From positions 1 through 64,000 of the forward strand of contig BTVY01000010.1 of NCBI GenBank assembly GCA_045863335.1: a stretch of DNA of 64,000 bases. The letters run 5' to 3'. This document shows positions 25,974 through 63,292 of the stretch, piece by piece. The stretch's first letter is position 1; the number at the start of each line of letters is the position of its first letter. The notes beneath the pieces were generated by a model, which had not been told where the DNA came from, did not search any database, and saw nothing but the letters and a program-made list of their open reading frames with translations. The DNA comes from Candidatus Hydrogenedentota bacterium (GTDB taxonomy: Bacteria > Hydrogenedentota > Hydrogenedentia > Hydrogenedentales > SLHB01). The translations under genes were made by a program, and so were the position numbers.

Positions 25974-25978
25974 GCTCC

Positions 25979-30629: not shown

Positions 30630-30686
30630 TACCTGCGGTGCAGCGGCCCCAATGGAGGGGGCGCGCAAACGGTAAAGGTAGAAGCG

Positions 30687-32447: not shown

Positions 32448-32472
32448 CGGCCGGAATCATGGGAGCGAGAGC

Positions 32473-33873: not shown

Positions 33874-33925
33874 GCACAAGCAACGTGATGGAGGAGACCC
33901 ACGCAGCAATGGTAGAAGGCGAGGA

Positions 33926-34087
33926 AACATCCCCCTTTGTCCCCCTTCAAAGGGGGAATTGTGCTTACGCGAGTTTTTCGGCAGAAGTATCGTACTTGAC
34001 CCGGAACGAAGTCCCCGGCGAAGCCAGGAGTGCAATGCGAAGCGTTGCGACTGGTTCCCCCTTTGAAGGGGGATCAAGGGGGATGTT
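33926..34087. mobile_element. MITE-like element, copy 2, between subunit B and D genes
   Basis: AACATCCCCCTTTGTCCCCCTTCAAAGGGGGAA ... TTCCCCCTTTGAAGGGGGATCAAGGGGGATGTT; same termini and nearly the same length as 10557-10719. Confidence 0.75.
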
Positions 34088-34132
34088 CTTCGGGCAAACT
34101 GCGTCTCCGAAGACGTATACAGGACGAAGTCG

Positions 34133-34777
34133 ATGGCACGATTAGCGGTAAACCCGACGCGGATGGAGCTGTTGCGGCTGCGCAAGCGGCTGCAGGTGGC
34201 CGTGCGCGGTCACAAACTGCTGAAAGACAAACTCGACGGTCTCATGAAAGAGTTCATGGCGCTGGCCGCCGAGTACAAGCAGTACCGCCTCGCGGTGGAT
34301 GAAGAACTGCCGCGCGTCATGAAGTTCTTCGTGTTGGCCGAGGTGACCTCGTCCCGTCTGATCACCGAAGACGCCCTGGAAAACACGCGCCAGGAACTGA
34401 AGATCGAGCGGAAAATTCGGCGCATCATGAGCGTGAATGTGCCGCACCTGGACGTCGAATTCGGCGAAACCACCGGCGGCTACTCCATGGTGCATACTTC
34501 GGTGGAACTCGACGAAGCGATCACGGGCCTGCGCGCCTTCCTGCCGAAGCTGCTGAAGATGGCGGAACTGGAAGAGACGGTCCGGCTGCTCAGCGACGAG
34601 ATCGAAAAGACGCGCCGCCGCGTGAACGCGCTTGAACACTCCTTCATCCCGCGCATGCAGGAAACCATCAAGTACATCAAGGACAAGCTCGACGAAACCG
34701 AACGGTCCAACACGAGCCGTCTCATGAAGATCAAGAGCCAGCGCGAAGCGATCGAACAAATGCAGGCGTCGGGCTGA
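34133..34777 (+). CDS. ntpD: V/A-type ATP synthase subunit D
   Basis: NPTRMELL, RGHKLLKDK and IEKTRRRVNALE. Confidence 0.96.
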   Translation: MARLAVNPTRMELLRLRKRLQVAVRGHKLLKDKLDGLMKEFMALAAEYKQYRLAVDEELPRVMKFFVLAEVTSSRLITEDALENTRQELKIERKIRRIMSVNVPHLDVEFGETTGGYSMVHTSVELDEAITGLRAFLPKLLKMAELEETVRLLSDEIEKTRRRVNALEHSFIPRMQETIKYIKDKLDETERSNTSRLMKIKSQREAIEQMQASG

Positions 34778-45749: not shown

Positions 45750-46229
45750 CTATTTTTCACTTAGGTGCGGCTCACGTGCTTTGACCATGAGGCGGCTGAT
45801 GGTGGCCAGTTCAGTCGCGCTCATGTGGCCCAGCAGTTTCCGGTGCATCTCCCGAACCGGGCCGTCCAAGGTGGCCAAGGTGTCCAGGCCCGCCGGCGTG
45901 ATGTGGACATAGATGACGCGCCGGTCTACCTTGCAACGTTCCCGCCGGGCCAGTTTCAGCTTTTCCAACCGATCGATCAGCCGGGTCATGTCGGGCTCCC
46001 GGGCGACCATCCGGTCACCGATATCGTGCACCCGCGCGCCATGGTCGCCCGCGCCGCGCAGGATGCGGAGAATGTTGTAGAGCGGCGCGGAAAGGTTCTG
46101 CTCTTTCAGAAGCGCCGACGAGATCCCGGTAAGGACGCTGTGCGTGCGCATGATATTGAGCATCGCCTCGTCTTCAGGGCCCGCAAAGGCTTTGCGTTGT
46201 TTGATTTCGGTTTGCAGTGCCGAAGTCAT
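45750..46229 (-). CDS. MarR family transcriptional regulator
   Basis: Motifs YNILRIL, PDMTRLIDRLE and DRRVIYVHITPAG. Confidence 0.92.
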   Translation of the reverse strand: MTSALQTEIKQRKAFAGPEDEAMLNIMRTHSVLTGISSALLKEQNLSAPLYNILRILRGAGDHGARVHDIGDRMVAREPDMTRLIDRLEKLKLARRERCKVDRRVIYVHITPAGLDTLATLDGPVREMHRKLLGHMSATELATISRLMVKAREPHLSEK

Positions 46230-46260
46230 GATGTCCTCGCTTTCCGGTTGACTCAACGCA

Positions 46261-46296
46261 ATTATACCGTAAAACAGATAATGTGTCAACATGTAT
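46261..46296 (-). promoter_or_regulatory. Consensus sigma70 promoter of marR, with putative operator over the -35
   Basis: Minus strand TTGACA (46289-46284) - 17 bp - TATAAT (46266-46261). Confidence 0.85.
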
Positions 46297-46454
46297 GTGT
46301 TGCCGCGTTCCAACTCCCCCCCGAGCCGGGCCGTGGACTGGGATTGGACCCGCGTGATCTGGCAAGGTACGGTGGAATCCCCGCCAAAACGGGGATCGCA
46401 TACGTCTCGTGCCCGTAAAGTCCTTTCCAGGCAGAAAAAGCAAGGACATAGAAA

Positions 46455-47477
46455 ATGCCGTTGAAGATTGCCTTTGCCGGATTTCGTCACGGCCATATCA
46501 TGGCCTTGTACCGGTTGTTACTGGACCGTAGCGACGCCACCATCGTGGCGGCGTGCGAAGAGGACACAGAAGCGGCGGAGGCCGCCATGGACCAGGGGGT
46601 CCGCATCACACACCGCCGCTTCGCAAAAATGTTGTCCACGGTCGAGTGCGACGTCATCGCCTGCGGCGACTACTTCGCCATCCGCGGAGAGCGGCTCATC
46701 GCCGCGCTGGAGGCGGGCAAGCACGTCATCGGCGACAAACCGCTGTGCACGCGCCTCACCGAACTGGACCGGATTCAGGAACTGGCCCACAGCAAACACT
46801 TGAAGGTCGGTTGTCTGTTGGATCTGCCGAACCTGGGCCCCTACATCACCCTGCGCAACATGATTCAGAACGGCGCCGTCGGCGAAGTGCACACGATCAC
46901 GTTCCTGGGCATCCATCCCCTCAACTACGCCAAACGGCCCAAGTGGTATTTTGAACCCGGCAAGCACGGCGGCACGGTCAACGACATCGGCATCCACGCC
47001 GTCGACATTATTCCGTGGTTAACTGGGCGAAGCATAACCGGCATTACCGCAGCGCGAGGCTGGAACGCGCGGTTGCCTCAACACCCTGAATTTCAAGATG
47101 GCGGCACGTTGATGCTCCGGCTGGACAATGACGGGTGCGCTCTGGGCGACGTTTCCTATTTGAGCGCCGATACGACGGGGTACAAGAATCCCGCGTACTG
47201 GCGGTTCACCATAACCGGCTCTGCGGGACTCATCGAGACGGCATGCACGGACACGCTCGTACACCTGTACCGCCACGATTCCGAGAAGCCCATCGAAGAA
47301 CCCATCGCCGAACACGCGACCGGCGGTTTTTTCGAAGATTTCCTGCGCGACGTGGCAGACGAACCCAACCTGGGCGGACTCCACACGGAGCGGGTGTTGC
47401 ACAGTTCCAGAGTCACCCTTCTGGCCCAACAGGCAGCGGACACGGGGCAGTTTCCGGTAGACGTGCCCACAGGCTGA
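46455..47477 (+). CDS. Gfo/Idh/MocA family oxidoreductase
   Basis: Rossmann start IAFAGFRHGH, AGKHVIGDKP and GGTVNDIGIHAVD. Confidence 0.88.
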   Translation: MPLKIAFAGFRHGHIMALYRLLLDRSDATIVAACEEDTEAAEAAMDQGVRITHRRFAKMLSTVECDVIACGDYFAIRGERLIAALEAGKHVIGDKPLCTRLTELDRIQELAHSKHLKVGCLLDLPNLGPYITLRNMIQNGAVGEVHTITFLGIHPLNYAKRPKWYFEPGKHGGTVNDIGIHAVDIIPWLTGRSITGITAARGWNARLPQHPEFQDGGTLMLRLDNDGCALGDVSYLSADTTGYKNPAYWRFTITGSAGLIETACTDTLVHLYRHDSEKPIEEPIAEHATGGFFEDFLRDVADEPNLGGLHTERVLHSSRVTLLAQQAADTGQFPVDVPTG

Positions 47478-47592
47478 CCGCGAGACCGTCCTTCCTGACT
47501 CTCCCGTATCGCTCTCACCACCTTCGCTGAAACGCGGCCTGCCCCTGTAGTATACTTGGCCCTTTCGAGTGGTCGAGGGAGTATTCCGGAAA

Positions 47593-48309
47593 ATGAAGAC
47601 ACTGGTGTCGGTGGTCGTCCCGTTCTATAACGAAGAGGACAACGTACTCCCATTGGCAAACAAGGTCGCCGAGGTCTTCGCCGGCCTGCCGGACTACGAG
47701 TACGAGTGCCTCTTCGTCAATGACGGGAGCAAGGATGGCACCCGGGCCCGGTTAGACGGACTCGCGGAGCAGGATGCGCGAATCCGGCCCCTGCACCTGG
47801 TGGAAAACCGGGGCCAGTCGGCCGCCTTGGTGGCCGGGATGCGGCGCGCGAAGGGCGAGTTCATCCTGACGTTGGACGGCGATCTGCAGAACGATCCCTG
47901 CGATTTCCCGAAGATGCTGGAGTTGTTGAAAGACTTCGACTGCGTGTGTGGCTATCGGGCGAATCGCCAGGACACGTGGGTCCGCAAGATATCCAGCAGA
48001 ATCGGAAACGGCGTGCGGCGGATGATTCTGGACGACGGCATCCGCGACGCAGGCTGCGGCAGCAAGGGTTTCCGGCGCGCCTGCGTGGAGCACATCATCC
48101 CGTTCAACGGCGTCCACCGGTATTTTGCCGTGATGGTGCGGAACGGCGGGCTGACGCTGACCGAATGCCCAGTCACGCATCATCCCCGCGTGCATGGCAT
48201 TTCGAAGTATGGCATTCACAACCGCCTGTGGCGCGGTATCTACGACCTCATCGGCGTGGGCTGGCTGCGCCGGCGTTATGTAACCTTCCGTGTGGAAGGA
48301 GAGGACTGA
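47593..48309 (+). CDS. GT2 polyprenol-phosphate glycosyltransferase (ArnC/DPM1-like)
   Basis: Motifs VVPFYNE, VNDGSKD, GQSAAL, DGDLQND and DAGCG. Confidence 0.9.
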   Translation: MKTLVSVVVPFYNEEDNVLPLANKVAEVFAGLPDYEYECLFVNDGSKDGTRARLDGLAEQDARIRPLHLVENRGQSAALVAGMRRAKGEFILTLDGDLQNDPCDFPKMLELLKDFDCVCGYRANRQDTWVRKISSRIGNGVRRMILDDGIRDAGCGSKGFRRACVEHIIPFNGVHRYFAVMVRNGGLTLTECPVTHHPRVHGISKYGIHNRLWRGIYDLIGVGWLRRRYVTFRVEGED

Positions 48310-49014
48310 GTGAGCGCGTATCTATCCGACCCCGTCCTGTTGTTCTGGCTGATCCTGGGGGCGACAGGCGGCGTAATTTTCTACGGGCGTTTTTACGTTC
48401 AGTGGTGGGCTTCCGAGCGCCAGAAGCGCAGCGTGATGCCCATCGCCTTCTGGTACATGAGCAGCGTGGGCTCGCTCATGCTCTTGGCGTACGCGGTCCA
48501 CACCCAGTCCCCCGTGGGCGCGCTGGGCCAAAGCCTGAATATCGTCATCTACTCCCGCAACCTGGTCCATATCTGGCGTGAGAAGGGCAAGCTGACCTCC
48601 GCGGCGAATTGGGCGATTCATGGCGCCGTCGCGGTCATCTCAATCGTGGCCCTGGGCTTGGTGGCCCATATCTGGTTCTCCGAATACCGGCACACGCAGA
48701 CCGTCGCTGAGAACGAGGCCAATCAGATCTGGTTCTGGCTGGCTATCGGCGTGGCGGGTCAGGCGCTGTTTGCGTCGCGGTTCATCATTCAATGGATCGC
48801 TACCGAAGTGAAGCGGAAGAGCGTGATTCCCCATATTTTCTGGCACATCAGTGTTGTGGCGAGTGTGCTGCAACTCGCCTGCTTTTGGCAGCGGGGCGAA
48901 TGGATCTTCGCCCTGGGCATGATTGCGAATATCCTCGTGTACAGCCGCAATCTCTGGTTCATCTACCGGCATCCGGAGGAGTCGCAGGCCAGCCAAGCCG
49001 GAATGGCCCAGTGA
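48310..49014 (+). CDS. Lipid-A-disaccharide synthase N-terminal (LAB_N) tandem-domain membrane protein
   Basis: Two RFxxQWxxxExxxxSVxPxxFW repeats. Confidence 0.85.
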   Translation: MSAYLSDPVLLFWLILGATGGVIFYGRFYVQWWASERQKRSVMPIAFWYMSSVGSLMLLAYAVHTQSPVGALGQSLNIVIYSRNLVHIWREKGKLTSAANWAIHGAVAVISIVALGLVAHIWFSEYRHTQTVAENEANQIWFWLAIGVAGQALFASRFIIQWIATEVKRKSVIPHIFWHISVVASVLQLACFWQRGEWIFALGMIANILVYSRNLWFIYRHPEESQASQAGMAQ

Positions 49015-50987
49015 TGCTCAAGCACGTCCCACTGATCTTCGTACTCCTCTGCGGAGCGGTCCTCTTCGGTATCAACGTCTGGGGCTACAACCTATGGGCG
49101 CCCGATGAACCCCGCTTCGCTCAAGTCGCCCGAGAAATCCTCGACACGGGCGACTGGATCGTCATGCACGTGAACGGCGAGCCCTACTACGAAAAGCCGC
49201 CGCTCATGTTTTGGACCATCGCGCTTTTCTCCCTGCCCTTTGGCGACGTAACGGAATTGACCGCGCGCATGCCGTCCATCCTCGGCGCCCTGGCGACGCT
49301 CTTGCTGACCTTCCTGCTGGCGGAGCGCATGTACGGGAAACGCGTGGCCTTCGCCTCGTCCGTCGTCTTGATGACCATGGCCCTGTTCTGGTGGCAGGCA
49401 CGGACCGCCCAGATCGACATGTACCTAACCGCGTGGACCACGCTCACCCTGTTTGCCTTCTGGCGGCATTTCGAATCACGGGACACGAAATGGCTCATCG
49501 TCATGTACGGGGCCATCGCCGCGGCCGTATTTGCGAAGGGTCCGCCGGGAGTGGTGTTTCCGTTGTTGCTGGCCTTCACCTTCTACTGGCGCAAACGGGC
49601 GGAGCGGCGCTCTCTGCATCTGGTCGTCGGCATTGTCGCGGTGGCCATAGTCGTTGGCATCTGGCTAATCCCCGCATACTCCATGGCAGGCGGAGAAGAG
49701 ACGCGGCCCCACATGACCGAAGAAACCTCCGTCGGCATGATCGCGCAAAACCTCTACCGGCAGACCATCGGCCGATTCGTGTTGGGCGTCAGCAAAAAGC
49801 AGCCGCCCTGGTACTATCTCGAAAACCTGCCGGTGAACGTCTTCCCGTGGACCCTGTTTCTGCCTTGGATGCTCTACGCCGTATGGAAACGGCGCCATGA
49901 AGGTCCGGCCATGCGGCTGCTCTTGTGCTGGACGCTGCCGGCCATTCTGTTCTTCTCCATCAGCTCGGGAAAACGCGCCCTGTATCTCCTGCCCATTTTC
50001 CCGGCTATCGCCATCCTGTTCGGAACGACGCTGGTTGAACTCATGGACAGCGATCGGGAGAAGTGGCGGCGGCGCACCGGCTATGTCTGGGCGGCCATTA
50101 TGCTTTTACTCGGTCTGCCCGCGGTTCCGCTTGGCTATATGGCCGCAACTGGAAACCTGGATCGGTTCGACGCATTCCTCCAGTCGCAGGATTTGCCCAT
50201 GGCGATTACGGACCATGGCCTGACGGTTATCCTGACCATTCTGCCGCTGTGCGTGTGTGCGCTCTTCTTCTTCGTCCACGCGATCGTCAGCTCCCGGCGC
50301 ATGGAAGGGCGCATGCTTCCTTACGCCATGGCGGGCCACTTCGCAGGGCTCGCCGCGGTGCTTGCCGTCATCGTTTTTCCGTTCATCAATACCTTCAAAG
50401 GGGCTGAGAAATTCTGCGCACCGGTTCGGATGCTCGCGGAGCAGGGCGAGGATTTCCGGTTGTACTCGGTTGCCTTCTCCCGCGAGACCTACGTTTTCTA
50501 CTCCAAACATCACCATATCCCCTTCCTGGTAGACGAGTGGCCCTTGCCCGTTCCCGAAGGCCGGAATCCCGACGAAATCGCGATGCAACAGCGCGCAATG
50601 GGGGGCGTCCTTCGCGGCGCGACCCAGGACGTTCCCATCGCCGACATATCCTCGGTAACCGACGAGGAATTGGAAGCGTTGCGAGGGGCGTCCGAAGCCG
50701 CGTTTGCTTTTGCCTCGACCAAGTCGGACCTCGTGGAACCGTTTCGAGTGGCGGTCACGGAAGGGGTTCAGGACTTTCATGCGGACTTTGAGGGTGGTAC
50801 GCCCGCTTTCATGTATGTGCAAACCCAGGATTGGCGGTGGCTTCTGACGTTTGCGCCGGCCCTGCGCGAGTTGCCCATCGTAGGACATGAAGCGGTTGGG
50901 AGCCGTCAAGTTCTGCTCGTGGCAAACCAGGCGGGGGCGAGACTACTCCCGCCCGAATCCAGTAACGCTCATCGGCCCGGCGGGTAA
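49014..50987 (+). CDS. ArnT/PMT-like (GT-C) glycosyltransferase
   Basis: Motifs PDEPRF, YEKPPL, ARMPS, IDM, AKGP, PWYYL and KRALYLLP; GTGATG overlap with the upstream gene. Confidence 0.9.
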   Translation: MLKHVPLIFVLLCGAVLFGINVWGYNLWAPDEPRFAQVAREILDTGDWIVMHVNGEPYYEKPPLMFWTIALFSLPFGDVTELTARMPSILGALATLLLTFLLAERMYGKRVAFASSVVLMTMALFWWQARTAQIDMYLTAWTTLTLFAFWRHFESRDTKWLIVMYGAIAAAVFAKGPPGVVFPLLLAFTFYWRKRAERRSLHLVVGIVAVAIVVGIWLIPAYSMAGGEETRPHMTEETSVGMIAQNLYRQTIGRFVLGVSKKQPPWYYLENLPVNVFPWTLFLPWMLYAVWKRRHEGPAMRLLLCWTLPAILFFSISSGKRALYLLPIFPAIAILFGTTLVELMDSDREKWRRRTGYVWAAIMLLLGLPAVPLGYMAATGNLDRFDAFLQSQDLPMAITDHGLTVILTILPLCVCALFFFVHAIVSSRRMEGRMLPYAMAGHFAGLAAVLAVIVFPFINTFKGAEKFCAPVRMLAEQGEDFRLYSVAFSRETYVFYSKHHHIPFLVDEWPLPVPEGRNPDEIAMQQRAMGGVLRGATQDVPIADISSVTDEELEALRGASEAAFAFASTKSDLVEPFRVAVTEGVQDFHADFEGGTPAFMYVQTQDWRWLLTFAPALRELPIVGHEAVGSRQVLLVANQAGARLLPPESSNAHRPGG

Positions 50988-51126
50988 TGTATGGCAGGCA
51001 GGGTTATCCACCGATTGGACCAGCCATCGGCATCAGGGGTTTCGCCAAATCGGCTATTGCCAACCATAGATAGTGTTTGCCGACATTTGGAAGTTGCACA
51101 TCTAGCGGATGGCCGGGCGGGAATAC

Positions 51127-51156
51127 TTGACAAACCGAAACAAGATTGAGTAGCAT
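51127..51156 (+). promoter_or_regulatory. Putative sigma70 promoter of a small ORF
   Basis: TTGACA (51127-51132) - 18 bp - TAGCAT (51151-51156). Confidence 0.55.
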
Positions 51157-51209
51157 AACGAAAGCGTTGGGTCGCTGATCGTACATCTATTGAGAAGGAG
51201 GAACTGGAC

Positions 51210-51353
51210 ATGCCGAATTTTGACGCCATTTTTCAGAACTTGCTGGGATCGTTTGCTGACGCGTTGATTGTCAACCTCGGTGAGCTCGGCTATGCCGTGC
51301 TGCTGTGGCTCATCAATCTGCTGCTTCTGGTTGACGTTCCGACGCCGATCTAA
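51210..51353 (+). CDS. Unannotated 47-aa hydrophobic, acidic small protein
   Basis: MPNFDAIFQNLLGSFADALIVNLGELGYAVLLWLINLLLLVDVPTPI; strong RBS AAGGAGG; own putative promoter and terminator. Confidence 0.7.
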   Translation: MPNFDAIFQNLLGSFADALIVNLGELGYAVLLWLINLLLLVDVPTPI

Positions 51354-51386
51354 GCCTCAACAGAAACTACGCAGATTCAGATTTTG

Positions 51387-51426
51387 CCGCTGCCCGTGTG
51401 CCTTGTGTGCGCGGGCAGCGGTTTTT
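51387..51426 (+). terminator. Intrinsic terminator
   Basis: CCGCTGCCCG...CGGGCAGCGG followed by TTTTT. Confidence 0.8.
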
Positions 51427-51500
51427 ATGGCACCCCCAGTCTCACGCTAACTCCTTGCGCCCACTTGCAGTAGCGAATCGAGCCGGGTAGGCTCTTCTTC

Positions 51501-53900
51501 ATGAACAGGCCTCTGGTTTGGGTCGCCACGATGCTCGCTTTGGGTACATGGGCCGGTGGCGAAGGGTTGATATCCGGGCTTCTCGTCCCGGTGGCAATCT
51601 TCCTGTGCGGCCTGATTCCCCCCATAGCGATGCCGCGAAAACCACAGTTTAGGCTCGTTTCAGTCGTCCTCTGCTCCTTCGCCCTGGGCACGCTACTCTG
51701 GAACGTGCGGCATGCAGGTCCGCTGGGCGACCCGGTTTCGCAGTTGGTCGATTCCATGCCGAACTCCCCCTGGACCATGACGGGCCGAGTCCAGCGCACG
51801 GATCTCTTTATTGAGAATGCCTCTTCGCTGCGATTCACGCTCGATGTCGATGAGGTGGCTGCCGGCGGCCTTACCTACCAAGCAAGGGGGAAAGTTCAAG
51901 TACGCTGGCGGGACCCGTCAGGGCCGGTATTCACCGGGCAGCGAGTACAGGTGGAAGGAACGGCCACCAACCGAATCGGCACCGTTAATCCAGGAATCTA
52001 CGACGCGGAAGATCATCTCAAATCCGAGGGCACCTTTGCGCAATTGACCGTTCGGACCCCGGACGGCGTCAAGATCTTGAAGGAGGGGCCGTGGTGGTCG
52101 CTACGTTATCAGACCTCGCGTTTTCGCGTCCTGGAAGCCGCATGGTTCAAGGAGATTACGCCGCCGCAGTTCCTTCCGGTCGTGTATGCGGTATGGTTGG
52201 GAGACCGGTCGCACCTGCCACAGGACGTCTATGCGACGTATCGGCTGTCGGGCATCGCGCATATCCTGGCCGTCTCGGGCGTCCACGTAGGGATCATCTT
52301 CGCCAGCACCATGTTCGGCCTGCGCCTGTTCATGAGGAGCGGACGCTATCGTGCGCTGGTCGCCATGGTGACGGTCGTTCTCTTCGCGTTTGTCGCAGGG
52401 GCATCGGTGACCAGTCTGCGCGCGGCGCTGATGGTCTGCATCTATCTCGTGGCCGAGTTGTTCGAACGCGAACCGGACACGCCGACCGCACTGAGCCTCG
52501 CGGCAATCTTTTTCCTCGGCTATAACCCGGACGTTCTGTATCACATCGGATTCCAGCTTTCCTTCGCGAGCGTGGCGTCCATTCTGATCTTCACGTCGCC
52601 TATCGAACGTATTCTCGGGCCCCTACCTCTCGTCGTGCGCCAAACCGTCGCGGTTTCACTTGCCGTGCAGATCCTTCCGGTTCCGCTCTCGGCCTGCTAC
52701 TTCCACGTGTTGCCAGTTTGCGGCCCATTGATCAATCTCGTTGCGGTTCCGCTGTTGACCGTTGTGCTTTGGCTGTGCTTTCTATCTGCGCTGACGGCGG
52801 GGATCTCGTTCTCCATAGCGACTATCTTCGCCCACGCCCTCGCACCCGCGATTACCGTCATCCAAACCGTCGCCGGCTGGGGCGCAGAAGTCCAGCAGTA
52901 TATGCCCCCAATCACGTCGCCCACCCTCGGCGCGGGCATCATGTATGTCCTGGTAGTGCTGAGCGCCGTGGGCATTCGCGCCGCCAGCCGCCGTGGATCC
53001 TTCGTACATCGAGGCGTCGTCGTGGTGGCATTGATTGGCGTAGTCGTATTCTGGCGCGACTGGTGGCCGGAGCCATCCGTTGCCTTTCTTGACGTGCGTC
53101 AAGGCGACGCCACGGTAATCCTATCGCCAGAAGGAAGAGTAGCCGTGATCGACGCGGGAAATCGCAACGAATTCGCGGACTACGGCGAACGCGTCGTCGC
53201 GCCGTACCTTTGGTCGCACGGCGTTACGCGCATCGATCACTTGTTCCTGACCCACGCCGACCGGGACCACATGGGCGGCGCCGTGTACCTGCTCGATGAG
53301 TTGGATGTAGGCGAAGTCTTGCTGGGGCCGGTCGCCGGGGACAGCCAGACGGAGCGAGAGATCATCGAACGCTGTGTAATACACTCGGTCCCCGTCAAAC
53401 GTGTGACGTCTGGCGAAGTCTTTGACTTGGGCGGAGCGGCGCTTCACGTATTGCATCCGCCAGCGGAATGGCCGGGAAACCACGAGGACAACGACCTGAG
53501 TGTCGTGATACGACTCGATTGGGATGGCACGCGCGTGCTCCTGCCCGGCGATATCGAGGCGGAAGCGGAGGCGTTGGTGGCAAGGTCCGATTGCAGGGCG
53601 GACGTGCTGAAAGTCCCCCACCACGGTTCGCGTACGTCGAGCTCGATCGCGTTCATCGACGCGGTGGCTCCGCGATTCGCTGTCGTGTCAACAGGAGGAC
53701 GATACGGGCGAGAGGCCGTTTCATCACAAGTGCTCGACCGCTACGTGCAGCGCGGCATTACCGTGCTCCGAACCGATGAGTTGGGGGCCGTCGTGCTCAG
53801 ACTGGATAACGGCTCTCCGCATCTGGTGGGTACGCGACAAGTACGCCCCGCCAACCCGGTGCTGAAGCGCGCAGGCACAGCCCTTGGAGATAACCAATGA
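51501..53900 (+). CDS. comEC: DNA internalization competence protein ComEC/Rec2
   Basis: OB domain, competence domain (GIAHILAVSGVHV, GFQLSF) and MBL domain (THADRDHMGG, KVPHHGS). Confidence 0.93.
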   Translation: MNRPLVWVATMLALGTWAGGEGLISGLLVPVAIFLCGLIPPIAMPRKPQFRLVSVVLCSFALGTLLWNVRHAGPLGDPVSQLVDSMPNSPWTMTGRVQRTDLFIENASSLRFTLDVDEVAAGGLTYQARGKVQVRWRDPSGPVFTGQRVQVEGTATNRIGTVNPGIYDAEDHLKSEGTFAQLTVRTPDGVKILKEGPWWSLRYQTSRFRVLEAAWFKEITPPQFLPVVYAVWLGDRSHLPQDVYATYRLSGIAHILAVSGVHVGIIFASTMFGLRLFMRSGRYRALVAMVTVVLFAFVAGASVTSLRAALMVCIYLVAELFEREPDTPTALSLAAIFFLGYNPDVLYHIGFQLSFASVASILIFTSPIERILGPLPLVVRQTVAVSLAVQILPVPLSACYFHVLPVCGPLINLVAVPLLTVVLWLCFLSALTAGISFSIATIFAHALAPAITVIQTVAGWGAEVQQYMPPITSPTLGAGIMYVLVVLSAVGIRAASRRGSFVHRGVVVVALIGVVVFWRDWWPEPSVAFLDVRQGDATVILSPEGRVAVIDAGNRNEFADYGERVVAPYLWSHGVTRIDHLFLTHADRDHMGGAVYLLDELDVGEVLLGPVAGDSQTEREIIERCVIHSVPVKRVTSGEVFDLGGAALHVLHPPAEWPGNHEDNDLSVVIRLDWDGTRVLLPGDIEAEAEALVARSDCRADVLKVPHHGSRTSSSIAFIDAVAPRFAVVSTGGRYGREAVSSQVLDRYVQRGITVLRTDELGAVVLRLDNGSPHLVGTRQVRPANPVLKRAGTALGDNQ

Positions 53901-55300
53901 TCCCGGTCAAAATGCGCGCAAGTTTTTCGCTCTTCCTGACAATTACCGCTCTTTCCTTCATCGTCGCCGTTGACTCCAGCGCGGATGACCGCGTCCGGCC
54001 GTATGAGGCCGATCCCCAGTACTGGCAGTACAAGGGCGAGCCCGTGCTCCTGCTCGGGGGCAGCAAGACGGACCACATTTTTCTGCTTGACGATCTGGAG
54101 AGTCACCTCGACGAGATTGTCGCGGCCGGCGGGAACTATGTGCGTTGCACGATGAGCCAACGTGAAGGCGCCGCGCTAAAGCCGCACCGGCTGTTGCCGG
54201 ACAACACGTTTGATCTCGACCAGTGGAACGACGACTACTGGAACCGCTTCGACCGGTGCCTTGAACTATGCGCGGCGCGCAACATCATTGTGCAGATCGA
54301 GCTGTGGGATCGCTTCGACTATTCGCAGAAGGAATGGGCGGCGAGCGCGTGGCGTCCCGCCAACAACGTGAACTACACCGGCGAGGAAACGGGATTCGCC
54401 GACGCCTATCCCGAGCCGGCCCATCGCGACAAGCAACCCTTCTTCTTTACCGTTCCCGGCATACCCCAATACAACAAGCGATACGCGCGCATTCTCTCCT
54501 ATCAGGAAGCCTTCGCGGAAAAGGTTTTGCAGCACGCGCTGCCGCACGGCAACGTGCTCTATTGCATCAGCAACGAAGGATCGGCCCCGGCGGAGTGGAG
54601 CGCGCATTGGGCGCAACTCATCCATGACCGCGCGCGGCAGGCGGGCGTCTCCGCGTTCGTCACGGAAATGCTCGACGGCGCGCGCCTGGAACCCGTCGTG
54701 AGCCGTCCGGACCTGTACACCTTTGTCGAAGGGTCAAAAGTGCTTGGGCCTCGACGTCAAGCCTGGGCGCCGAAAGGCGAAGGTCAATGGCAGATGACCC
54801 TCGACACTTTCGCGGCGATGGGCGATGCGAAGCGGCCTATCAACGCGGTGAAAATCATCACGAACGAAGACGCGGAACAGGACGTCTACTCACGGCAGAA
54901 ACTCTGGCGCGGGCTCATGGCGGGGATGGCTGCCATTCGATTCCATCGTGCGCCCGCAGGGTCTGCCCTCAACGACAGTGCCAAAGCATGCATTCGCGCC
55001 GCGCGGCTGGTCGAAGCGCAGGTAAAATTCTGGGAACTCGCGCCGCGCCTCGATCTGCTTTCAGATCGTGACGTGGACGAAGCATACCTGCGCGCGACAC
55101 CGGGACACGGCTATGTGATGTACTTTCCCAACGGAGGCGAGGTGACGATTGATCTCTCACGGGAACGGGAAACCCTCTCTGGCTACTGGATTGAAGTCGG
55201 AGCGGGCGAACAACGCGAAGTGTTCGCTGTCGACGGGGGCGCGCCAGTATCGATTGCAGCACCCGGAAAGGCAGATTGGGCCCTCGTACTTACACCTTAG
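53897..55300 (+). CDS. Secreted glycoside-hydrolase-like protein (clan GH-A-like barrel with C-terminal beta domain)
   Basis: Signal peptide; motifs YWQYKGEPVLLLG, GGNYVR, YCISNE and a C-terminal DWAL. Confidence 0.6.
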   Translation: MIPVKMRASFSLFLTITALSFIVAVDSSADDRVRPYEADPQYWQYKGEPVLLLGGSKTDHIFLLDDLESHLDEIVAAGGNYVRCTMSQREGAALKPHRLLPDNTFDLDQWNDDYWNRFDRCLELCAARNIIVQIELWDRFDYSQKEWAASAWRPANNVNYTGEETGFADAYPEPAHRDKQPFFFTVPGIPQYNKRYARILSYQEAFAEKVLQHALPHGNVLYCISNEGSAPAEWSAHWAQLIHDRARQAGVSAFVTEMLDGARLEPVVSRPDLYTFVEGSKVLGPRRQAWAPKGEGQWQMTLDTFAAMGDAKRPINAVKIITNEDAEQDVYSRQKLWRGLMAGMAAIRFHRAPAGSALNDSAKACIRAARLVEAQVKFWELAPRLDLLSDRDVDEAYLRATPGHGYVMYFPNGGEVTIDLSRERETLSGYWIEVGAGEQREVFAVDGGAPVSIAAPGKADWALVLTP

Positions 55301-55416
55301 AGGTATCGCGAGCGGCATCGAGTATCAAACCTTGCCGTTCCGGAACTTTGGTCGCGCATCGGGGATTCCATGCAGTACGCATCGCAATGGCCCGGCATCG
55401 ATATGAGGGACCTTTC

Positions 55417-55962
55417 ATGCTTACTGCGCACGTGCCTGCAGGCTATATCCTATCCAGAGCGGCGTTATCATCAGGCCTGCTGCCCGCGACCCTGTCGCCT
55501 CGACTCGTCATAGCATCCGGGGTGTTCGCTGCAATCCTGCCCGACCTCGATATGATCTACTTCTACACCATCGACGCGCGCCAACACCTGCACCACAGCT
55601 ATTGGACGCACATCCCATTGTTTTGGGTGGGCGTCTGCCTTGTCGTCGTTGCCGTGCTATATGCAATCCGGCAGGCAAAGTATGCGCCCCTGGTGGTTCT
55701 TGCTGCCGCAAACCTTCTCGTTCACTGCTTCCTGGATACGGTTGTTGCCGGCATCCTTTGGCACAAACCGTTTCTTCACAAATATACGGTGTTCGTAGAA
55801 GTTCCGAACGTATATCCCTACACGTTTATGAACTTTGTGCTGCACTGGACCTTTATATTCGAAGTGCTCATCTGGATCGTGGCGCTCGGATTGTTCCTCG
55901 GCGGCAGCCGCGGATTCTTGCGGCGACGCACGCCAACGTCCAGTCTCCCTGAAATGGGTTGA
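55417..55962 (+). CDS. Membrane-bound metal-dependent hydrolase (YdjM/DUF457-like)
   Basis: Motifs TAH, LPDLD, HHSYWTH and HCFLD. Confidence 0.8.
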   Translation: MLTAHVPAGYILSRAALSSGLLPATLSPRLVIASGVFAAILPDLDMIYFYTIDARQHLHHSYWTHIPLFWVGVCLVVVAVLYAIRQAKYAPLVVLAAANLLVHCFLDTVVAGILWHKPFLHKYTVFVEVPNVYPYTFMNFVLHWTFIFEVLIWIVALGLFLGGSRGFLRRRTPTSSLPEMG

Positions 55963-55963
55963 A

Positions 55964-56707
55964 TCACCCCTTCCGCGCGGTGATGAAATCGAAATGGTCG
56001 ACAAATTCCAGCACCTCCACGTCCGCATACCGGGCTTCCATTTCGCCCAGACCAGCCGCCAATTCCTCTGGCGAGAACGACGACAGAAGTGTCATGTACT
56101 GGGACTCGACCATGGCGAAATACTTGACCTTTGGGATGGCGTGCGGGTATTCGAGACAGTCGTGCTCCACTTGGAAACCCGCGTCGCGCAAGAGTTCCTG
56201 CAATTCGTCGGGGCAGGCGTGCCAGTTCAAGGCTCGTTCCAGCGCCGCATCGAACAAGGGATACCGGATCGTCGGCGGTACGTGCACCAGAAGAAACGCG
56301 CCGCCCTTCGGAAGGTTCGCGTAAATGTTCGCGAAGAGCTGCGCCTTGTCGTCCACGTGGTGCACGGCTTCCTTCATGAACGCTTTCGTGTATCCGTTGT
56401 GGTTTGCCGAGTACGCAAGCGCGTCCATGCAGATGGGCGTCAACCCACAACCTTCCGGGATCGCAGCGAGCATTTCGGCGAAGGGGTCCACTGCTTGAAC
56501 GGGTTGCTTCAATGAAACCTGCTTCAGGATGTCGACGGAGTACATGCCGGTGCCGCAAGCGAGGTCCAGCAGGACATCATCCGGCTGGAGTTCGAGTTTC
56601 TCGACCATCTTGGACGTCAATGCGCGCACGAATTCTGGCGAATAGTACAGGAAATCGTCGTACTTGTCCGCGATCCGCGTGTAATGTTCACGCAACAGTT
56701 CACTCAT
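55964..56707 (-). CDS. Class I SAM-dependent methyltransferase, last gene of the ect-ehu operon
   Basis: Motif I LLDLACGTG, VDP and KEAVHH; 26 bp after ehuA with RBS GGGAGGGAG. Confidence 0.88.
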   Translation of the reverse strand: MSELLREHYTRIADKYDDFLYYSPEFVRALTSKMVEKLELQPDDVLLDLACGTGMYSVDILKQVSLKQPVQAVDPFAEMLAAIPEGCGLTPICMDALAYSANHNGYTKAFMKEAVHHVDDKAQLFANIYANLPKGGAFLLVHVPPTIRYPLFDAALERALNWHACPDELQELLRDAGFQVEHDCLEYPHAIPKVKYFAMVESQYMTLLSSFSPEELAAGLGEMEARYADVEVLEFVDHFDFITARKG

Positions 56708-56733
56708 CTAATCTCCCTCCCTGGCTGCCTGCT

Positions 56734-57510
56734 TCATGCTTCGAGAACCGCCTTCAAGAATTCTCGGGTCCGTTCTTCGGACGGTTCAGTGAAGATGTGA
56801 TCGGGCGTGCCTTCTTCAACGATATTTCCGTGGTCGATGAAGACCACACGATCGGAGATCTCCTGCGCAAACCGCATCTCGTGGGTAACGAGGATCATCG
56901 TCGTGTCGTCCTGATGGGCCAGGTCGCGAAGCACTGTCAACACTTCGCCAACCAGCTCCGGGTCGAGGGCCGAAGTGACCTCGTCGAACAACATCACCGC
57001 CGGTTGCAGGGCCAGCGCGCGGGCAATCGCAACGCGCTGCTTCTGGCCTCCGGACAGTTGCCCGGGATAGACGTCGACTTTGTCGGCGAGACCCACCTTG
57101 TCCAGGAGTTGCCGGGCGCGCTCTTCCGCTTCTGCCCTGGGCGTCTTTAAGACGTGCCGCGGCGCGACGGTGACGTTGTGGAGCACGGTCATATGGGGAA
57201 ACAGGTTGAAGTGTTGAAAGACCATGCCCACCTTGCCCCGAACGTGACGAACGTGTTTGCGATTGGCAGGGACTGTCTTGCCGTTCTTCCGCATGTGCCA
57301 CATCGAGTCGCCGTCGATTTCAATTTCGCCTGAGGTCGGTTTCTCCAGGGTCATGATCAATCGCAATAAGGTCGATTTTCCCGAACCGCTCGGGCCTATG
57401 ATGGATACCTTCTCTTTAGGCGCTACATCGAGATTCAGACCACGAATCACATGAACGTCACCATAGGATTTGACGATATTCTTGAGGCGGACGATCGGTT
57501 GCTCGCTCAT
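56734..57510 (-). CDS. ehuA: Ectoine/hydroxyectoine ABC transporter ATPase EhuA
   Basis: Motifs [22 protein letters not shown] and [11 protein letters not shown]; ehu context. Confidence 0.92.
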
Positions 57511-58172
57511 GGGCGCGCTCCGTGGACGTGCAGCTTGCGTTCACTCCACCGGATGAATGAAGCCGCCAGCAAGCTGCACACGAGGAAGAAGATCCCCGCC
57601 ATCGTGAGGGGTTCCAGATAGCGGAAGGTCTCGGAGCCGATGATCTTGGATGATTGCAGCAATTCAAGCACGGTGATCGCGGAGAGCATGGGCGTATCCT
57701 TGAACATGGCGACGAAATAGTTGCCGAGGGCCGGGATAATCGGCGGAATCGCCTGGGGCAGGATCACCTTGAACCACGTCTGACGCCGATTCAGGTTAAG
57801 CGCAGTAGCCGCTTCCCATTGACCCCGGTCGACGCCCTCGATGCCCGCTCGATAGACCTCTGACATGAACCCGCTGTAATGAATGCCGAGCGCGATGATG
57901 CCCGTGAGGAGCGGCGTCATGCTGATCCCGAATTCCGGCAAGACATAGAACAGGAAGTAGATCTGCACGAGCACCGGTGTGCTCCGAATGAATTCCACAA
58001 TCGAGGCCACGGGCCAACAGATCGTACGGTGCTTGCTCCGGCGCGCCATGGCCCAGATCAGGCCCAGAACCGCCGCGAGCAGGGTGCCGATGATGGTCGC
58101 TTTCACGGTGACCACCAAACCGCGCAGCAGCTCGGGCATGATCTCCCAGGCAAATTGCCAGTCGAAGTTCAA
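57507..58172 (-). CDS. ehuD: Ectoine/hydroxyectoine ABC transporter permease EhuD
   Basis: Motifs [24 protein letters not shown] and FKDTP; TTG start after GGAGG. Confidence 0.9.
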
Positions 58173-58837
58173 TGGGATACCTCCAATTGCCGACCTCGTG
58201 TGAGGCGCCGTTCCAGCATGCGCACGAAGAACGTGAGGACGAGCGCAATGACGAAGTACATTACGAGCAGAAGTCCGAAGACTTCCGTGGTTCGCAAGGT
58301 TTCCGCGCGGAGCAATTGGCCGCGGAAGGTCAGATCGCTCAGCGTGATCAGCGAGACCAGCGCGGTGCTCTTCAACAACTCGATGAGCAGATTCCCCGCC
58401 GGTGGCAACATGGCGATGGCCGCCTGCGGCACGGTCACCAGCCACAAACTTTGCAACGGCGACAAGTTCAGCGCGGTGGATGCTTCGTGCTGTCCTTTGG
58501 GCACCGCCTGAATGGCGCCGCGCACGACCTCGCCGCCGTAGCTGCCGATATTGAGGCCGAGCACGAGGATCCCTGTCGTCATGGCGGAAAGGCTGACGCC
58601 AATGAGCGGCAGCGCGAAATAGAACCAGTACAACTGGACCAGCGCGGAGGTCCCGCGGAACGTTTCAATATACGCAATCGACATCCAGCGGATCGGCAAC
58701 ACTTTGCTGAGCCGGCCCAGACCCGACAGCCACGCCGCGACAAAGGCAACGCAAGCACCCCCCGCCGTAAGCCCCAGAGTGACCCAGAGTCCGCCCAGCA
58801 ACGAAGGCAGTAAATCAAGTGGCGGCGGCACGTCCAC
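58169..58837 (-). CDS. ehuC: Ectoine/hydroxyectoine ABC transporter permease EhuC
   Basis: Motifs FRGTSALVQLYW, EVVRGA and LVSLITLSDLTF. Confidence 0.9.
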   Translation of the reverse strand: MDVPPPLDLLPSLLGGLWVTLGLTAGGACVAFVAAWLSGLGRLSKVLPIRWMSIAYIETFRGTSALVQLYWFYFALPLIGVSLSAMTTGILVLGLNIGSYGGEVVRGAIQAVPKGQHEASTALNLSPLQSLWLVTVPQAAIAMLPPAGNLLIELLKSTALVSLITLSDLTFRGQLLRAETLRTTEVFGLLLVMYFVIALVLTFFVRMLERRLTRGRQLEVSH

Positions 58838-58849
58838 AACCTCCCCCCG

Positions 58850-59032
58850 CCGTCATCCTCGCGTAAGCGGGGACCCATCTTTGGTCTACCTCAAGCGCCG
58901 CATATTGAGTCCCACACCCGTGACGAACCCACACCGTCATCCCCGCGAAGGCGGGGATCCATCTTCGTGGCACGTCCCAAGCACTTGGCGATGCGAAGAT
59001 GGATCCCCGCCTTCGCGGGGATGACGGTGTGG
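58850..59032. repeat. REP-like cluster between ehuB and ehuC
   Basis: Perfect 39-bp inverted repeat (58929-58967 / 58994-59032) with core CGTCATCCCCGCGAAGGCGGGGATCCA, plus a third degenerate copy at 58850-58880. Confidence 0.85.
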
Positions 59033-59044
59033 AGCGGGACATTG

Positions 59045-59959
59045 TCATGAGCCGCCGCCTACGCCACCGCAGAGTTCCTCGGCCGTCACATCGCCGGGCA
59101 ACTCACTCTCTGTGAAGCCGAAAGGTTGGACCGTCTGCAAGTGATCTGGCGTGCCGATGTAGTCGCCCAGCGCTTCGTTAAACGCTTCACGAAACGCGGC
59201 GTCGTCATTGCGGAATCCGAAGGCGCCATATCCACGTATGGTCTCGCCTTCGATGACCGGATCGGTGAAAGGCTCCGCGCGCTCCAGCTTTCCATTGCCG
59301 GACTTGCTCATGAGATCCTGAATCGTGAGGCTCGTGCCCGCGTAGGCGTCGACCCGTCCCGCGACCACACCGGCAAGCGCGCTCGGCGGATCGGGAAACA
59401 CGATGACGCGGTCGTCGGGTATTCCGGTGGATCGCGCGTAGCCCCGCTCCACGGTTCCTGCCACCACGCCGAGCGTTGCGGACTCGTGCTGCGCGATGTC
59501 CTCGTAGCTGTGCAGAGCGAGCGGGTTGCCCGCCTTTACGACAAAGGCCTCGCCAATCGTATAGCTCGGGTTGGAGAACGCGATCTGCTCGCAACGCTCC
59601 GGCGTGATGTACATCCCCGCCGCGATTACATCGAATCGCTTCGCTTTCAAGCCCGGGATCAGCGAGCCGAACTCCGTCAGCACGCCTTCCACCTCGTTCA
59701 CGCCCATGCCGCTCATGACGGCGCGCAATACCTCCGGCGCTTCGCCGGTCAGTTTTCCCGTAGACGAATCAACGTACGCGTAGGGTGCTTCGTTCGCATA
59801 GCCCACGCGGATCGTGCCGGTCCGTTGGATCCGGTCCAGCGTCGACTCATCAGGATTAGACGGTGCGGAGCCCGAGCCGCCGCAGGACGGCAAGATCGCG
59901 CCAATCAGAAAAGCGGCGGCTACCGCGCGCGACAGCCGCCGGATGATGCGTTGTGACAT
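59045..59959 (-). CDS. ehuB: Ectoine/hydroxyectoine ABC transporter substrate-binding lipoprotein EhuB
   Basis: Motifs GYANEAPY, TGEAPE, FGSLIPGL, AAGMYITPERC and YGAFGFR; lipobox LPSC. Confidence 0.92.
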   Translation of the reverse strand: MSQRIIRRLSRAVAAAFLIGAILPSCGGSGSAPSNPDESTLDRIQRTGTIRVGYANEAPYAYVDSSTGKLTGEAPEVLRAVMSGMGVNEVEGVLTEFGSLIPGLKAKRFDVIAAGMYITPERCEQIAFSNPSYTIGEAFVVKAGNPLALHSYEDIAQHESATLGVVAGTVERGYARSTGIPDDRVIVFPDPPSALAGVVAGRVDAYAGTSLTIQDLMSKSGNGKLERAEPFTDPVIEGETIRGYGAFGFRNDDAAFREAFNEALGDYIGTPDHLQTVQPFGFTESELPGDVTAEELCGGVGGGS

Positions 59960-59992
59960 CGTGTGAATCTCCGGGGCACGTCGCCCCACATA

Positions 59993-60925
59993 TCAAGCTT
60001 GAATCGCTTCCATGTTGGCGACCAGCGAGCCGCTGTCCACCGGGGTGATGGGTGAGAAATCGTGGGACGCGACGAATTCCGGACGCGGCTTGTCGGCCTG
60101 AAAGGGATCAACGAGCGCGTTGGAGACCGCGTTGTACACGAGAAACACGTTGCTGCGCGGATACGGCGAAATGTTGCTGTTCGACCCATGCATGACGTTG
60201 CACTCAAACAACAGCACCGAACCGGCCCCACCCTTCGGGGCTACGATACCGCCGCGCTCGGCGAGCGTGGTCAAACTCGTGTGGTCCGGCACGCCGTATT
60301 CTTGCTTGCGCAAGGAATCTTTGTAATGATCCTTCGGAGTCCGCCCCGCACAGGACACGAAGTACTTGTGCGATCCCGGAATCACCATGAGCGGACCGTT
60401 ATGTTCGTTGTTTTCCGTGAGCGCGATGGAGCAACTGACAGCGCGCATGCGCGGCATACCGTCTTCCGCGTGCCAGGTCTCGAAATCGGAGTGCCAGTAG
60501 AACTCCTTGCCCTTGAAACCCGGCTTGTAGTTGATGCGGGACTGATGGATGTAGAGATCGTCGTCCAACAACTGGCGGATCATGTCCACGAGGCGGCTGT
60601 CGCGCGAAAGCATCCAGAAGAGGTGGCTCAAGCGGGTCACGTCGAACACTGAACGCACGTCTTTGCTGGTGGGTTCGATGATCGTGCACCCCTTCTCGGC
60701 GACTTCCTCCGACTGGCGAAGCGCGTGCACTTCCTTCTGCATCGCGTCTACTTCGTCGCCTGCGAAAAAGTTCTCGAGAAAAAGGAACCCGTCCCGGTCG
60801 TATTGTTCAAGTTGCGGCCGGGTGAGTGGCCCCAAGGCGGAACCGTTGTGACTGTAGACAACCGGATCCCGGCGCTCCATGAGCGAGAATTCATCGGTTG
60901 TGCGGGTTGGGTAGATATCCTGCAT
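59993..60925 (-). CDS. ectD: Ectoine hydroxylase
   Basis: EctD signature FYWHSDFETWHAEDGMP; HGSNSNISPYPRSN. Confidence 0.97.
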   Translation of the reverse strand: MQDIYPTRTTDEFSLMERRDPVVYSHNGSALGPLTRPQLEQYDRDGFLFLENFFAGDEVDAMQKEVHALRQSEEVAEKGCTIIEPTSKDVRSVFDVTRLSHLFWMLSRDSRLVDMIRQLLDDDLYIHQSRINYKPGFKGKEFYWHSDFETWHAEDGMPRMRAVSCSIALTENNEHNGPLMVIPGSHKYFVSCAGRTPKDHYKDSLRKQEYGVPDHTSLTTLAERGGIVAPKGGAGSVLLFECNVMHGSNSNISPYPRSNVFLVYNAVSNALVDPFQADKPRPEFVASHDFSPITPVDSGSLVANMEAIQA

Positions 60926-60937: not shown

Positions 60938-61372
60938 TCAGTGTTCGGTGGCCGCCAGGGGCTTGGCAGCCACGGAGTCGTTCTCTTCATCCTCAATCAA
61001 GGGATAGACGCCTTCGTCGTCGTGTACTTCCTTGCCCGTGCAGGGGGGATTGAACACGCACATGAGGCGGAGATTGGTCTTGGCGCGCACGATGTGCTTG
61101 TCGTGCTGGTCCAGGGCATACATGGTTCCCGGGACAATGGTGTGCTTGTCCCCGTTTGCCAGGTCCTCCAGTTCCCCTTCGCCTTCGACGCAGTAGACCG
61201 ATTCCAGATGGTTCCGGTACCACATGTAGGTTTCTGTGCCTGCGTAGATGATGGTCTCGTGGAAGGAGAAACCCATGCCATCCTTCCGCAGCAGAAAACG
61301 GCGGCTGACCCAGGTCGGTGCGTGGACCTCGCGGTCCGTGCCCTGCAAATCTTTAGCGGTGCGAACGATCAT
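60938..61372 (-). CDS. ectC: Ectoine synthase
   Basis: [27 protein letters not shown] and CVFNPP. Confidence 0.97.

Positions 61373-61373: not shown

Positions 61374-63292
<1,919 letters not shown>

Follow-up and report, generated by a model that had tools for sequence, protein, structure and literature searches.

A methyltransferase gene recurrently associated with ectoine synthesis and uptake genes in eight bacterial phyla

In bacteria of eight phyla, genes for the synthesis (ect) and the uptake (ehu) of ectoine are accompanied by a gene for a putative SAM-dependent methyltransferase, and this association is real and recurrent rather than a product of chance. We describe the gene from a 64,000-nucleotide stretch of contig BTVY01000010.1 of a Candidatus Hydrogenedentota bacterium (hereafter, the window), where it is the final gene of an ectABCD-ehuBCDA run on a single strand. 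Ectoine is an osmolyte that has been studied in depth and is made on an industrial scale, and the only tailoring of this molecule described in the accessible text of reviews is its hydroxylation by EctD. A methyltransferase conserved beside ect and ehu genes in eight phyla suggests that a further ectoine derivative exists and provides a candidate enzyme for it.

The methyltransferase gene and its cluster

The eight genes upstream of the methyltransferase, which code for EctA, EctB, EctC, EctD, EhuB, EhuC, EhuD and EhuA, are adjacent and share its strand, and 8 of 8 pass their NCBIfam cut-offs (table 1). An earlier note on this DNA had described an intact class I methyltransferase gene 26 bp after ehuA on the same strand, with its own ribosome-binding site, with no terminator in between and ending at a convergent gene, and every part of this description has held. 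The open reading frame starts with ATG and is free of stops and frameshifts, and its product passes three Pfam cut-offs (Methyltransf_25, 42.7 bits against 27; Methyltransf_23, 36.7 against 27; Methyltransf_11, 34.9 against 21.2). The ehuA stop at 56734 leaves the gap of 26 bp that holds the ribosome-binding site, and comparable purine-rich sites precede the methyltransferase gene at L001, L002 and L003 (L designates loci of other genomes, P homologous proteins). In a scan of positions 46000-60000, none of 24 terminator-like and none of 5 promoter-like sites fell in this gap. The stop of the convergent YdjM-like gene lies 1 nt from that of the methyltransferase and marks the end of the run; the YdjM-like gene is present in L001 and missing from L002. 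The GC3 of the methyltransferase gene is 0.75, and the eight ect and ehu genes span 0.69-0.81.

Table 1. Features of the ect/ehu cluster in the window
Feature	Positions	Strand	Basis and remarks
YdjM-like membrane protein gene, convergent, outside the system	55276..55962	+	PF04307 35.8 bits, cut-off 29; start uncertain
Methyltransferase, class I SAM-dependent, ect/ehu-linked subfamily, 247 aa	55964..56707	-	ORF, Pfam, model, homologs
Ribosome-binding site GGGAGGGAG	56713..56721	-	inside the 26-bp gap after ehuA, 5 nt ahead of the methyltransferase ATG
ehuA, ABC ATPase	56734..57510	-	TIGR03005 394 bits, cut-off 345
ehuD, permease	57507..58172	-	TIGR03003 325 bits, cut-off 205
ehuC, permease	58169..58837	-	TIGR03004 270 bits, cut-off 197
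Inverted repeat, perfect 39-bp, between ehuB and ehuC	58929..59032		z = -9.6; without U-tract
ehuB, ectoine/hydroxyectoine-binding protein	59045..59959	-	TIGR02995 296 bits, cut-off 191; PDB 2q88 match E 1.5e-50
ectD, ectoine hydroxylase	59993..60925	-	TIGR02408 404 bits, cut-off 337
ectC, ectoine synthase	60938..61372	-	NF009806 204 bits, cut-off 128
ectB, diaminobutyrate transaminase	61374..62699	-	TIGR02407 656 bits, cut-off 552; start may be 62681
ectA, diaminobutyrate acetyltransferase	62699..63292	-	TIGR02406 212 bits, cut-off 121

A single transcript running from ectA to the methyltransferase is likely; it can only be inferred, because the 39-bp inverted repeat sits between ehuB and ehuC. 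This repeat, which we take to be REP-like, is not found in the closest relative, L001 (where the ehuB-ehuC gap is 2 nt), and its core has no second copy anywhere in the window; it might stabilise the part of the message upstream of it or attenuate read-through.

Just upstream of ectA, a zinc-ribbon-like ORF of 44 aa (CxxC...CxxC; 63432-63298, minus strand) is conserved in the two closest loci (L001:1490-1624 and L003:1016-1153), and because it fills this interval the ectA start is likely at 63292 and not at 63355. Ahead of the cluster stands a gene for a stand-alone receiver-like domain (63906-63502, minus strand; Pfam 23.5 bits, under the cut-off), as it also does in L001 and L003; other lineages have a MarR gene there. 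Elsewhere in the window are a complete and ordinary-looking V/A-type ATP synthase operon (25168-34774, plus strand) and the equally ordinary-looking clpS-clpA-aat, metG, groEL, comEC and a second PhyH-family dioxygenase gene (6534-7448).

A subfamily defined by its residues and its neighbours

A protein search returned 274 relatives, the best 120 of which are 55-93% identical to the window protein over the full length; a search of 50%-identity representatives gave 766 at E<=0.001, of which 51 reached E<=1e-30. The close family measures 245-268 aa. By title, the nearest genome records are from Nitrospiraceae (94%) and Hydrogenedentota (93% and 85%), though the titles of MAGs may be wrong, and the ESM Atlas matches consist of unnamed methyltransferase clusters only. 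In a FastTree phylogeny of 157 rows, the window protein belongs to a group of 58 (support 94), separate from a mainly marine cyanobacterial group, from actinomycete groups and from three PhyH-fused proteins. A series of residues is kept throughout the family (H8, Y9, Y16, motif I, D74, K112, E113, H116, H117 and YPLF). Another series is specific to the group of the window protein (L20, H142-V143-P144, W162-H163-A164 and D240); the cyanobacterial and main actinomycete groups instead carry W20, L/M/T142, x-Q-P and V/A240, and five basal actinomycete rows have the window group's set in part only. We called a protein signature-positive when it had 5 of the 6 residues H142, V143, P144, W162, H163 and D240. 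The signature occurs in 120/120 of the close homologs listed, as against 0/67 proteins of the mainly cyanobacterial sister group, a difference in sequence that suggests a substrate unlike that of the sister groups. In conservation the methyltransferase equals the Ect and Ehu proteins that accompany it: its mean pairwise identity is 57-58%, and the values at the same loci are 58% for EctB, 56% for EctC and 54% for EhuB.

The sister group (L041, L043, L044, L047, L048, L050, L051 and L053, together with protein hits) is 40-46% identical, lacks ect linkage and differs in its pocket signature. Its members come chiefly from marine cyanobacteria (Lyngbya, Moorena, Okeania, Trichodesmium sp., Crocosphaera and Calothrix) and are candidates for methylating another osmolyte. 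Three distant relatives of 534-558 aa (P0180, P0232 and P0252; 32-35% identity) are fused to a PhyH-type dioxygenase domain, of the superfamily to which EctD belongs, and look to be of eukaryotic or algal origin. A point against ectoine as the substrate is that the wider family, which has the same core H8/Y9/Y16/K112/E113/H116/H117, includes marine cyanobacterial and actinomycete members with no ect linkage, so that ectoine was not the family's original substrate.

The scan of species genomes confirmed 90 relatives; 80 loci were examined and 78 were scored for the signature. The two left unscored have short or broken frames (L077, which is ehu-linked, and L049, without an ect or ehu match in 1.4 kb). 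Neighbouring genes were called with a codon-score caller, and a locus was taken as linked when the 8 kb fetched contained an ect or ehu gene with 40% identity or more to its counterpart in the window. Linkage was found at 30 of the 39 signature-positive loci versus 1 of the 39 signature-negative ones (Fisher p 3e-12, on rows that are not independent), which bears out the recurring linkage for which the earlier note had proposed to look. According to their record titles, the 30 linked loci come from Planctomycetota (9), Actinomycetota (6), Pseudomonadota (5), Nitrospinota (3), Nitrospirota (2), Myxococcota (2), Hydrogenedentota (2) and Acidobacteriota (1), eight phyla in total. The carriers include nitrifier- and anammox-related lineages, and examples in culture are Bradyrhizobium cenepequi CNPSo 4026 (L017) and Planctomycetales 10988 (L009). 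About nine gene orders are represented: the methyltransferase may lie directly after ehuA, after ectD or after ehuB, divergent from ectA or from a marR that follows ectD, or convergent on ehuA or ectC. A MarR gene adjoins it or lies close by in L006, L007, L008, L013, L021, L029, L034, L046 and L052.

The nine signature-positive loci (9/39) that are unlinked count against a role in ectoine metabolism. Four of them are covered by less than 2.5 kb on both sides; the other five (L014, L023, L027, L028 and L039), with 3 kb or more to one side, are genuine exceptions as far as linkage in cis goes. The methyltransferase is an accessory gene and not a standard component of ectABCD-ehuBCDA clusters, because 72,556 plasmid records contain EhuB in 338 cases and EctC in 91 versus a methyltransferase match in only 4, at 27-35% identity; in the one of these four that was inspected, no ect genes lie nearby.

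Several observations were made beside these loci. A distant signature-negative homolog of the actinomycete group (L059:3131-3892; 34%) lies between ectA and ehuA and suggests a second, independent recruitment of the family to an ectoine cluster. A draft contig of Candidatus Scalindua rubra (L038:3609-5199) carries ectA, an incomplete ectB, a portion of ehuA and the methyltransferase. The accessible text of the Scalindua genome paper states that no Scalindua can make ectoine (PMC5486813), and both overlooked genes and a mis-binned contig are possible. A radical SAM/SPASM-like gene of 330-360 aa recurs within or alongside ect loci that carry the methyltransferase in records of Nitrospinota and Scalindua (L013:1192-2277, plus strand; L021:450-1451, minus; L038:1362-2363, plus; L049:1018-1428, plus); it passes no specific NCBIfam family cut-off and may be a second accessory gene. 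In three actinomycete loci (L054:8744-11338, L057:8729-11362 and L060:8729-11401), a homolog without the signature runs into the start of a large gene with NACHT and FGE-sulfatase domains, and in eight Pseudonocardiales-type or Actinomycetota loci such a homolog lies near a GntR-UTRA regulator in an apparent integrative element.

Fold, gene contexts and the probable substrate

The structure model of the window protein (pLDDT 93.6, pTM 0.89) has a class I fold of seven strands; a lid lies at the N-terminus, helices form a cap after beta5, and beta6 and beta7 make a long pair. Motif I, of the D-x-G-x-G-x-G type and placed after beta1, reads LDLACGTG at 47-54 (most homologs have G in place of A50), with D48, G52 and T53 invariant in 35/35 sequences, and D74 is the acidic end of beta2. 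By motif I, D74 and the seven-strand model, the protein is a class I SAM-dependent methyltransferase, and we infer from sequence that it transfers methyl groups from SAM. The top 50 structural matches are all SAM-dependent methyltransferase folds. The best five are tied at a Z of about 20 and less than 20% identity among O-methyltransferases, S-methyltransferases and methyltransferases of uncharacterised type; since they act on different atoms, they indicate the fold and not the substrate. The signature residues sit at the ends of beta4, beta5 and beta7 and in the cap helices, and such positions, together with general knowledge of the fold, suggest that they line the acceptor pocket. The segment K112-E113-x-x-H116-H117 aligns with the R-D-x-x-x-H of the phosphoethanolamine N-methyltransferases (PMTs), E113 and H117 corresponding to D and H, and H117 is presumably the equivalent of PfPMT His132. 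The same pairing of an acidic residue with a histidine after beta4 is widespread among class I enzymes.

The contexts in which the gene is found say more about its substrate. Complete ectABC is present in 22/30 linked loci, and 10 linked loci have ect genes without ehu. Within the 22 ectABC loci, ectD occurs in 19 (once cut by a contig end and once frameshifted); L015 and L021 show none within the DNA fetched and L013 has no intact copy, yet all three carry the methyltransferase, and hydroxyectoine as an obligate substrate is thus rejected. What remains of ectD in L013 (4572-4915) has a large internal deletion, and ectABC, ehu and the methyltransferase are intact there. L024 and L031 have ehuBCDA with DoeA-like or EutA-like genes, and ectABC is absent from their contig DNA; the scores of these DoeA-like and EutA-like genes, far under the cut-offs (237 against 575 and 97 against 318), count against involvement of ectoine. 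At L052 (3995-4914), ectA and ectD are decayed remnants and ectB and ectC are gone, but marR, ehuBCDA and a methyltransferase gene 75% identical to that of L008 are intact; this is one MAG contig, and the decay may be recent. Ring-closed ectoine would be the molecule common to the ect-only, ehu-only and decayed settings, as judged from the gene content of partial contigs, and for this reason it is put forward as the substrate. A scan of 255 neighbouring genes revealed no recurring synthesis gene for betaine, proline or DMSP, and osmolyte-type neighbours were limited to transporters within ect clusters (ProP-like at L008; sodium:solute symporters at L009 and L034).

A retuned EhuB transporter was considered and gave no signal: the pocket motifs of EhuB at 19 linked loci are the same as in S. 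terangae EhuB, whose locus has no methyltransferase. Nor do evolutionary distances tell whether the methyltransferase has co-evolved with ect rather than ehu, or the reverse, since over the same 10 loci its correlations with EctA (rho 0.45), EctB (0.38), EctC (0.20), EhuB (0.50) and EhuD (0.49) do not discriminate.

From the gene contexts described it is somewhat likely that the methyltransferase acts on ectoine or hydroxyectoine and gives a derivative of +14 Da. It would be a dedicated tailoring enzyme of the ectoine system, in which SAM is bound under the lid of the Rossmann fold, the aromatic residues Y22, W162 and Y204 and the acids E113 and D240 hold the amidinium ring and a histidine serves as base. 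One methyl group would be transferred to ring-closed ectoine, and perhaps to 5-hydroxyectoine too, supplied by EctABC(D) synthesis or by EhuABCD import, and the +14 Da ectoine would most likely act as a further compatible solute under the same osmotic control. The earlier note had proposed a methylated derivative of ectoine, hydroxyectoine or diaminobutyrate, or else a second solute. The sequence comparisons favour the first two. The diaminobutyrate derivative is less likely because the gene persists where synthesis genes are gone or decayed, and so is a second, unrelated solute, because genes for betaine, proline or DMSP synthesis do not recur nearby.

The position of the methyl group can be narrowed only in part. 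A ring nitrogen is a possible site, if an unlikely one, and is made plausible by the PMT-like motif. Methylation of an oxygen, on the carboxyl or the 5-OH, is still less probable and is made plausible by the Tam/BioC-like structural neighbours. The C2 methyl, which would give 2-homoectoine, is a doubtful candidate; it enters because of the H/D exchange seen in D3-ectoine and the natural occurrence of 2-homoectoine. Azizah and Pohnert are said to have described this compound in 2024 as the 2-ethyl, +CH2 analogue, of the same mass as methylectoine, and it has reportedly been found in Rhodobacteraceae. Against a link with the C2 methyl, 0 of the 80 loci belong to Rhodobacteraceae records, and the use of propionyl-CoA by EctA would explain 2-homoectoine without a methyltransferase. 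The accessible text of one paper notes H/D exchange in D3-ectoine made from CD3CN (PMC7024275), and this exchange fits an acidic C2 methyl and is no proof of one.

Other explanations deserve consideration, and the least unlikely of them is that the enzyme makes a second, unrelated osmolyte (for example the betaine of homoserine, of proline or of another amino acid, or a sulfonium compound) and resides in ect/ehu clusters for shared osmotic regulation only. Aspartate-semialdehyde is a precursor of both homoserine and ectoine, the nearest solved sequences are multi-step amine N-methyltransferases, and unlinked signature-positive loci do exist. The largely marine cyanobacterial membership of the sister group also agrees with it, and in Trichodesmium, according to the accessible text, homoserine betaine is made through a single 'Methyltransferase type 11', Tery_2447 (PMC5864184). 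However, the gene tracks ect and ehu specifically, its neighbours include the transporters named above and no recurring synthesis gene for such a solute, and its pocket residues are sharply unlike those of the cyanobacterial group; the 60 best of the 140 PDB profile matches include no GSMT, SDMT, DsyB or MmtN chain, and no homolog of DsyGD length was found. An open-chain substrate is improbable. Here L-2,4-diaminobutyrate or N-acetyl-diaminobutyrate would be converted to a betaine-like solute, or to an N-methyl precursor for cyclisation by EctC. A protonated amidine is a poorer nucleophile than a free alpha-amine, the catalytic motif is PMT-like and most linked loci have all of ectABC; in uptake-only settings, ring hydrolysis of the DoeA type would give N-acetyl-diaminobutyrate, and L024 has a DoeA-like gene. 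Nonetheless, L052 and L031 keep the methyltransferase on contig DNA without synthesis genes or hydrolase, and the EctC of the window aligns with solved ectoine synthases with no change obvious by eye.

A slightly more improbable alternative accepts ectoine as the substrate and makes the product something other than an osmolyte, for example a methyl ester or other derivative that is a disposal form or a signal to a MarR-type regulator. The carboxyl methyltransferases Tam, Tmt1 and BioC are among the structural neighbours, and MarR adjoins or is co-oriented with the gene in several loci (at L008 the gap is 30 bp), but the window, L009, L010, L017 and L025 have no MarR beside the gene, and no exporter recurs. 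That the gene is an unrelated passenger on a mobile ect/ehu cassette is very improbable and largely refuted: many of the records are MAG contigs, and its distances track those of EctA, EctB, EhuB and EhuD (rho 0.38-0.50 over the 10 loci) as they would under co-transfer, but the link has outlasted about nine rearrangements, including divergent, convergent, ect-only and ehu-only ones, and the distant homolog of L059, too, is found in an ectoine cluster.

Returning to methylation of ectoine, we tentatively propose from sequence comparison that the subfamily could be a second tailoring enzyme beside EctD, supplying little-cultured bacteria of the eight phyla with a methylated ectoine (N-methylectoine, or 2-homoectoine through C-methylation at the amidine methyl) as a compatible solute. 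If true, this would provide a candidate gene for the +CH2 ectoine signals (homoectoine mass) of marine metabolomics, a biocatalyst with which to make new extremolytes and a marker by which to trace osmolyte chemistry among uncultured lineages, and it would make the cyanobacterial sister groups and the PhyH-fused forms candidates for other marine osmolytes.

Comparison with known systems

The PMTs are the best matches among solved sequences (AtPMT1, 5wp4; PMT-2, 4ine/4krh), at E 2e-5 for the single sequence and 3.5e-8 for the profile. The motif after beta4 is alike in the two (K-E-x-x-H-H to R-D-x-x-x-H), whereas the overall structure, including the phosphobase-binding cap, does not match (TM-score 0.55-0.58, rmsd about 8 A, 14-19% identity), and the window protein is single-domain and without phospholipid context; identity with PMT is rejected. 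In PfPMT, the accessible text describes a catalytic Tyr/His pair (PMC6705855). Over the whole fold, the best matches are TTHA0223 (2yqz), HvrF (9e72), OxaG (5w7k), 3ege and TmtA (5egp), with Z of 19.7-20.2 and rmsd of 2.7-3.4 A over 217-237 residues at 11-18% identity; Tam and Tmt1 follow at a Z of about 17. Thirteen NCBIfam models match the methyltransferase and no specific one reaches its cut-off. The best is BioC (34 bits against 185), UbiE has 31 against 216 and there is no Tam model among the 13, so that identity with BioC, UbiE or Tam is rejected; the source labels 'UbiE' and 'trans-aconitate methyltransferase' on homologs are generic. GSMT is likewise rejected (NF051855, 19.9 bits against a cut-off of 350, over residues 6-81 only), in keeping with the earlier note's impression.

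Like the window protein, GSMT/SDMT, DsyG/DSYE/TpMMT and Tery_2447 are class I enzymes of the Methyltransf_11 type and of similar size, and they make compatible solutes, as the accessible texts describe (PMC11306096, PMC5864184). Assignment to DsyG/DSYE calls for about 46-50% identity to the DsyG(D) of G. sunshinyii and for MSM activity. Compared by description, the single-domain DsyG, DsyG-like and DSYE proteins are listed at 276-347 aa in the accessible text (PMC11306096), against the 245-268 aa of the close family. Lengths speak against DsyG/DSYE identity, a lead that was set aside: the Planctomycetales protein MCA9139260.1, assayed in that source, has 278 aa versus 255 aa for P0087. No homolog or fusion of DsyGD length was found at E<=0.001 among 7,999 candidates; of six long hits, three have a PhyH-type and one an EamA domain, and a ureidoglycolate-lyase match was found in 0/5 scanned. 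Tery_2447, also compared by description, is annotated as 'Methyltransferase type 11' with a length above 705 bp in the accessible text (PMC5864184), and the Trichodesmium sp. protein P0301 falls in the cyanobacterial sister group.

The compound nearest to the proposed product is 2-homoectoine, a natural relative of ectoine in marine algae and bacteria according to the accessible text (PMC11644330); its link to the methyltransferase is hypothetical. The association of the methyltransferase with ect and ehu is apparently unreported. The word 'methyltransferase' is absent from the accessible main text, as distinct from figures and supplements, of the 2018 ectoine review (PMC5924519), and it occurs once, for GSMT, in the corresponding text of the 2026 survey of Planctomycetota (PMC13342039); a literature search that covered few subscription journals found neither methylectoine nor this methyltransferase gene. 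Clusters of ect genes with Ehu importers are described in the accessible text of that survey (PMC13342039), and when set against such known ectABCD-ehuBCDA clusters, the window has all eight of their genes and, in addition, a conserved methyltransferase.
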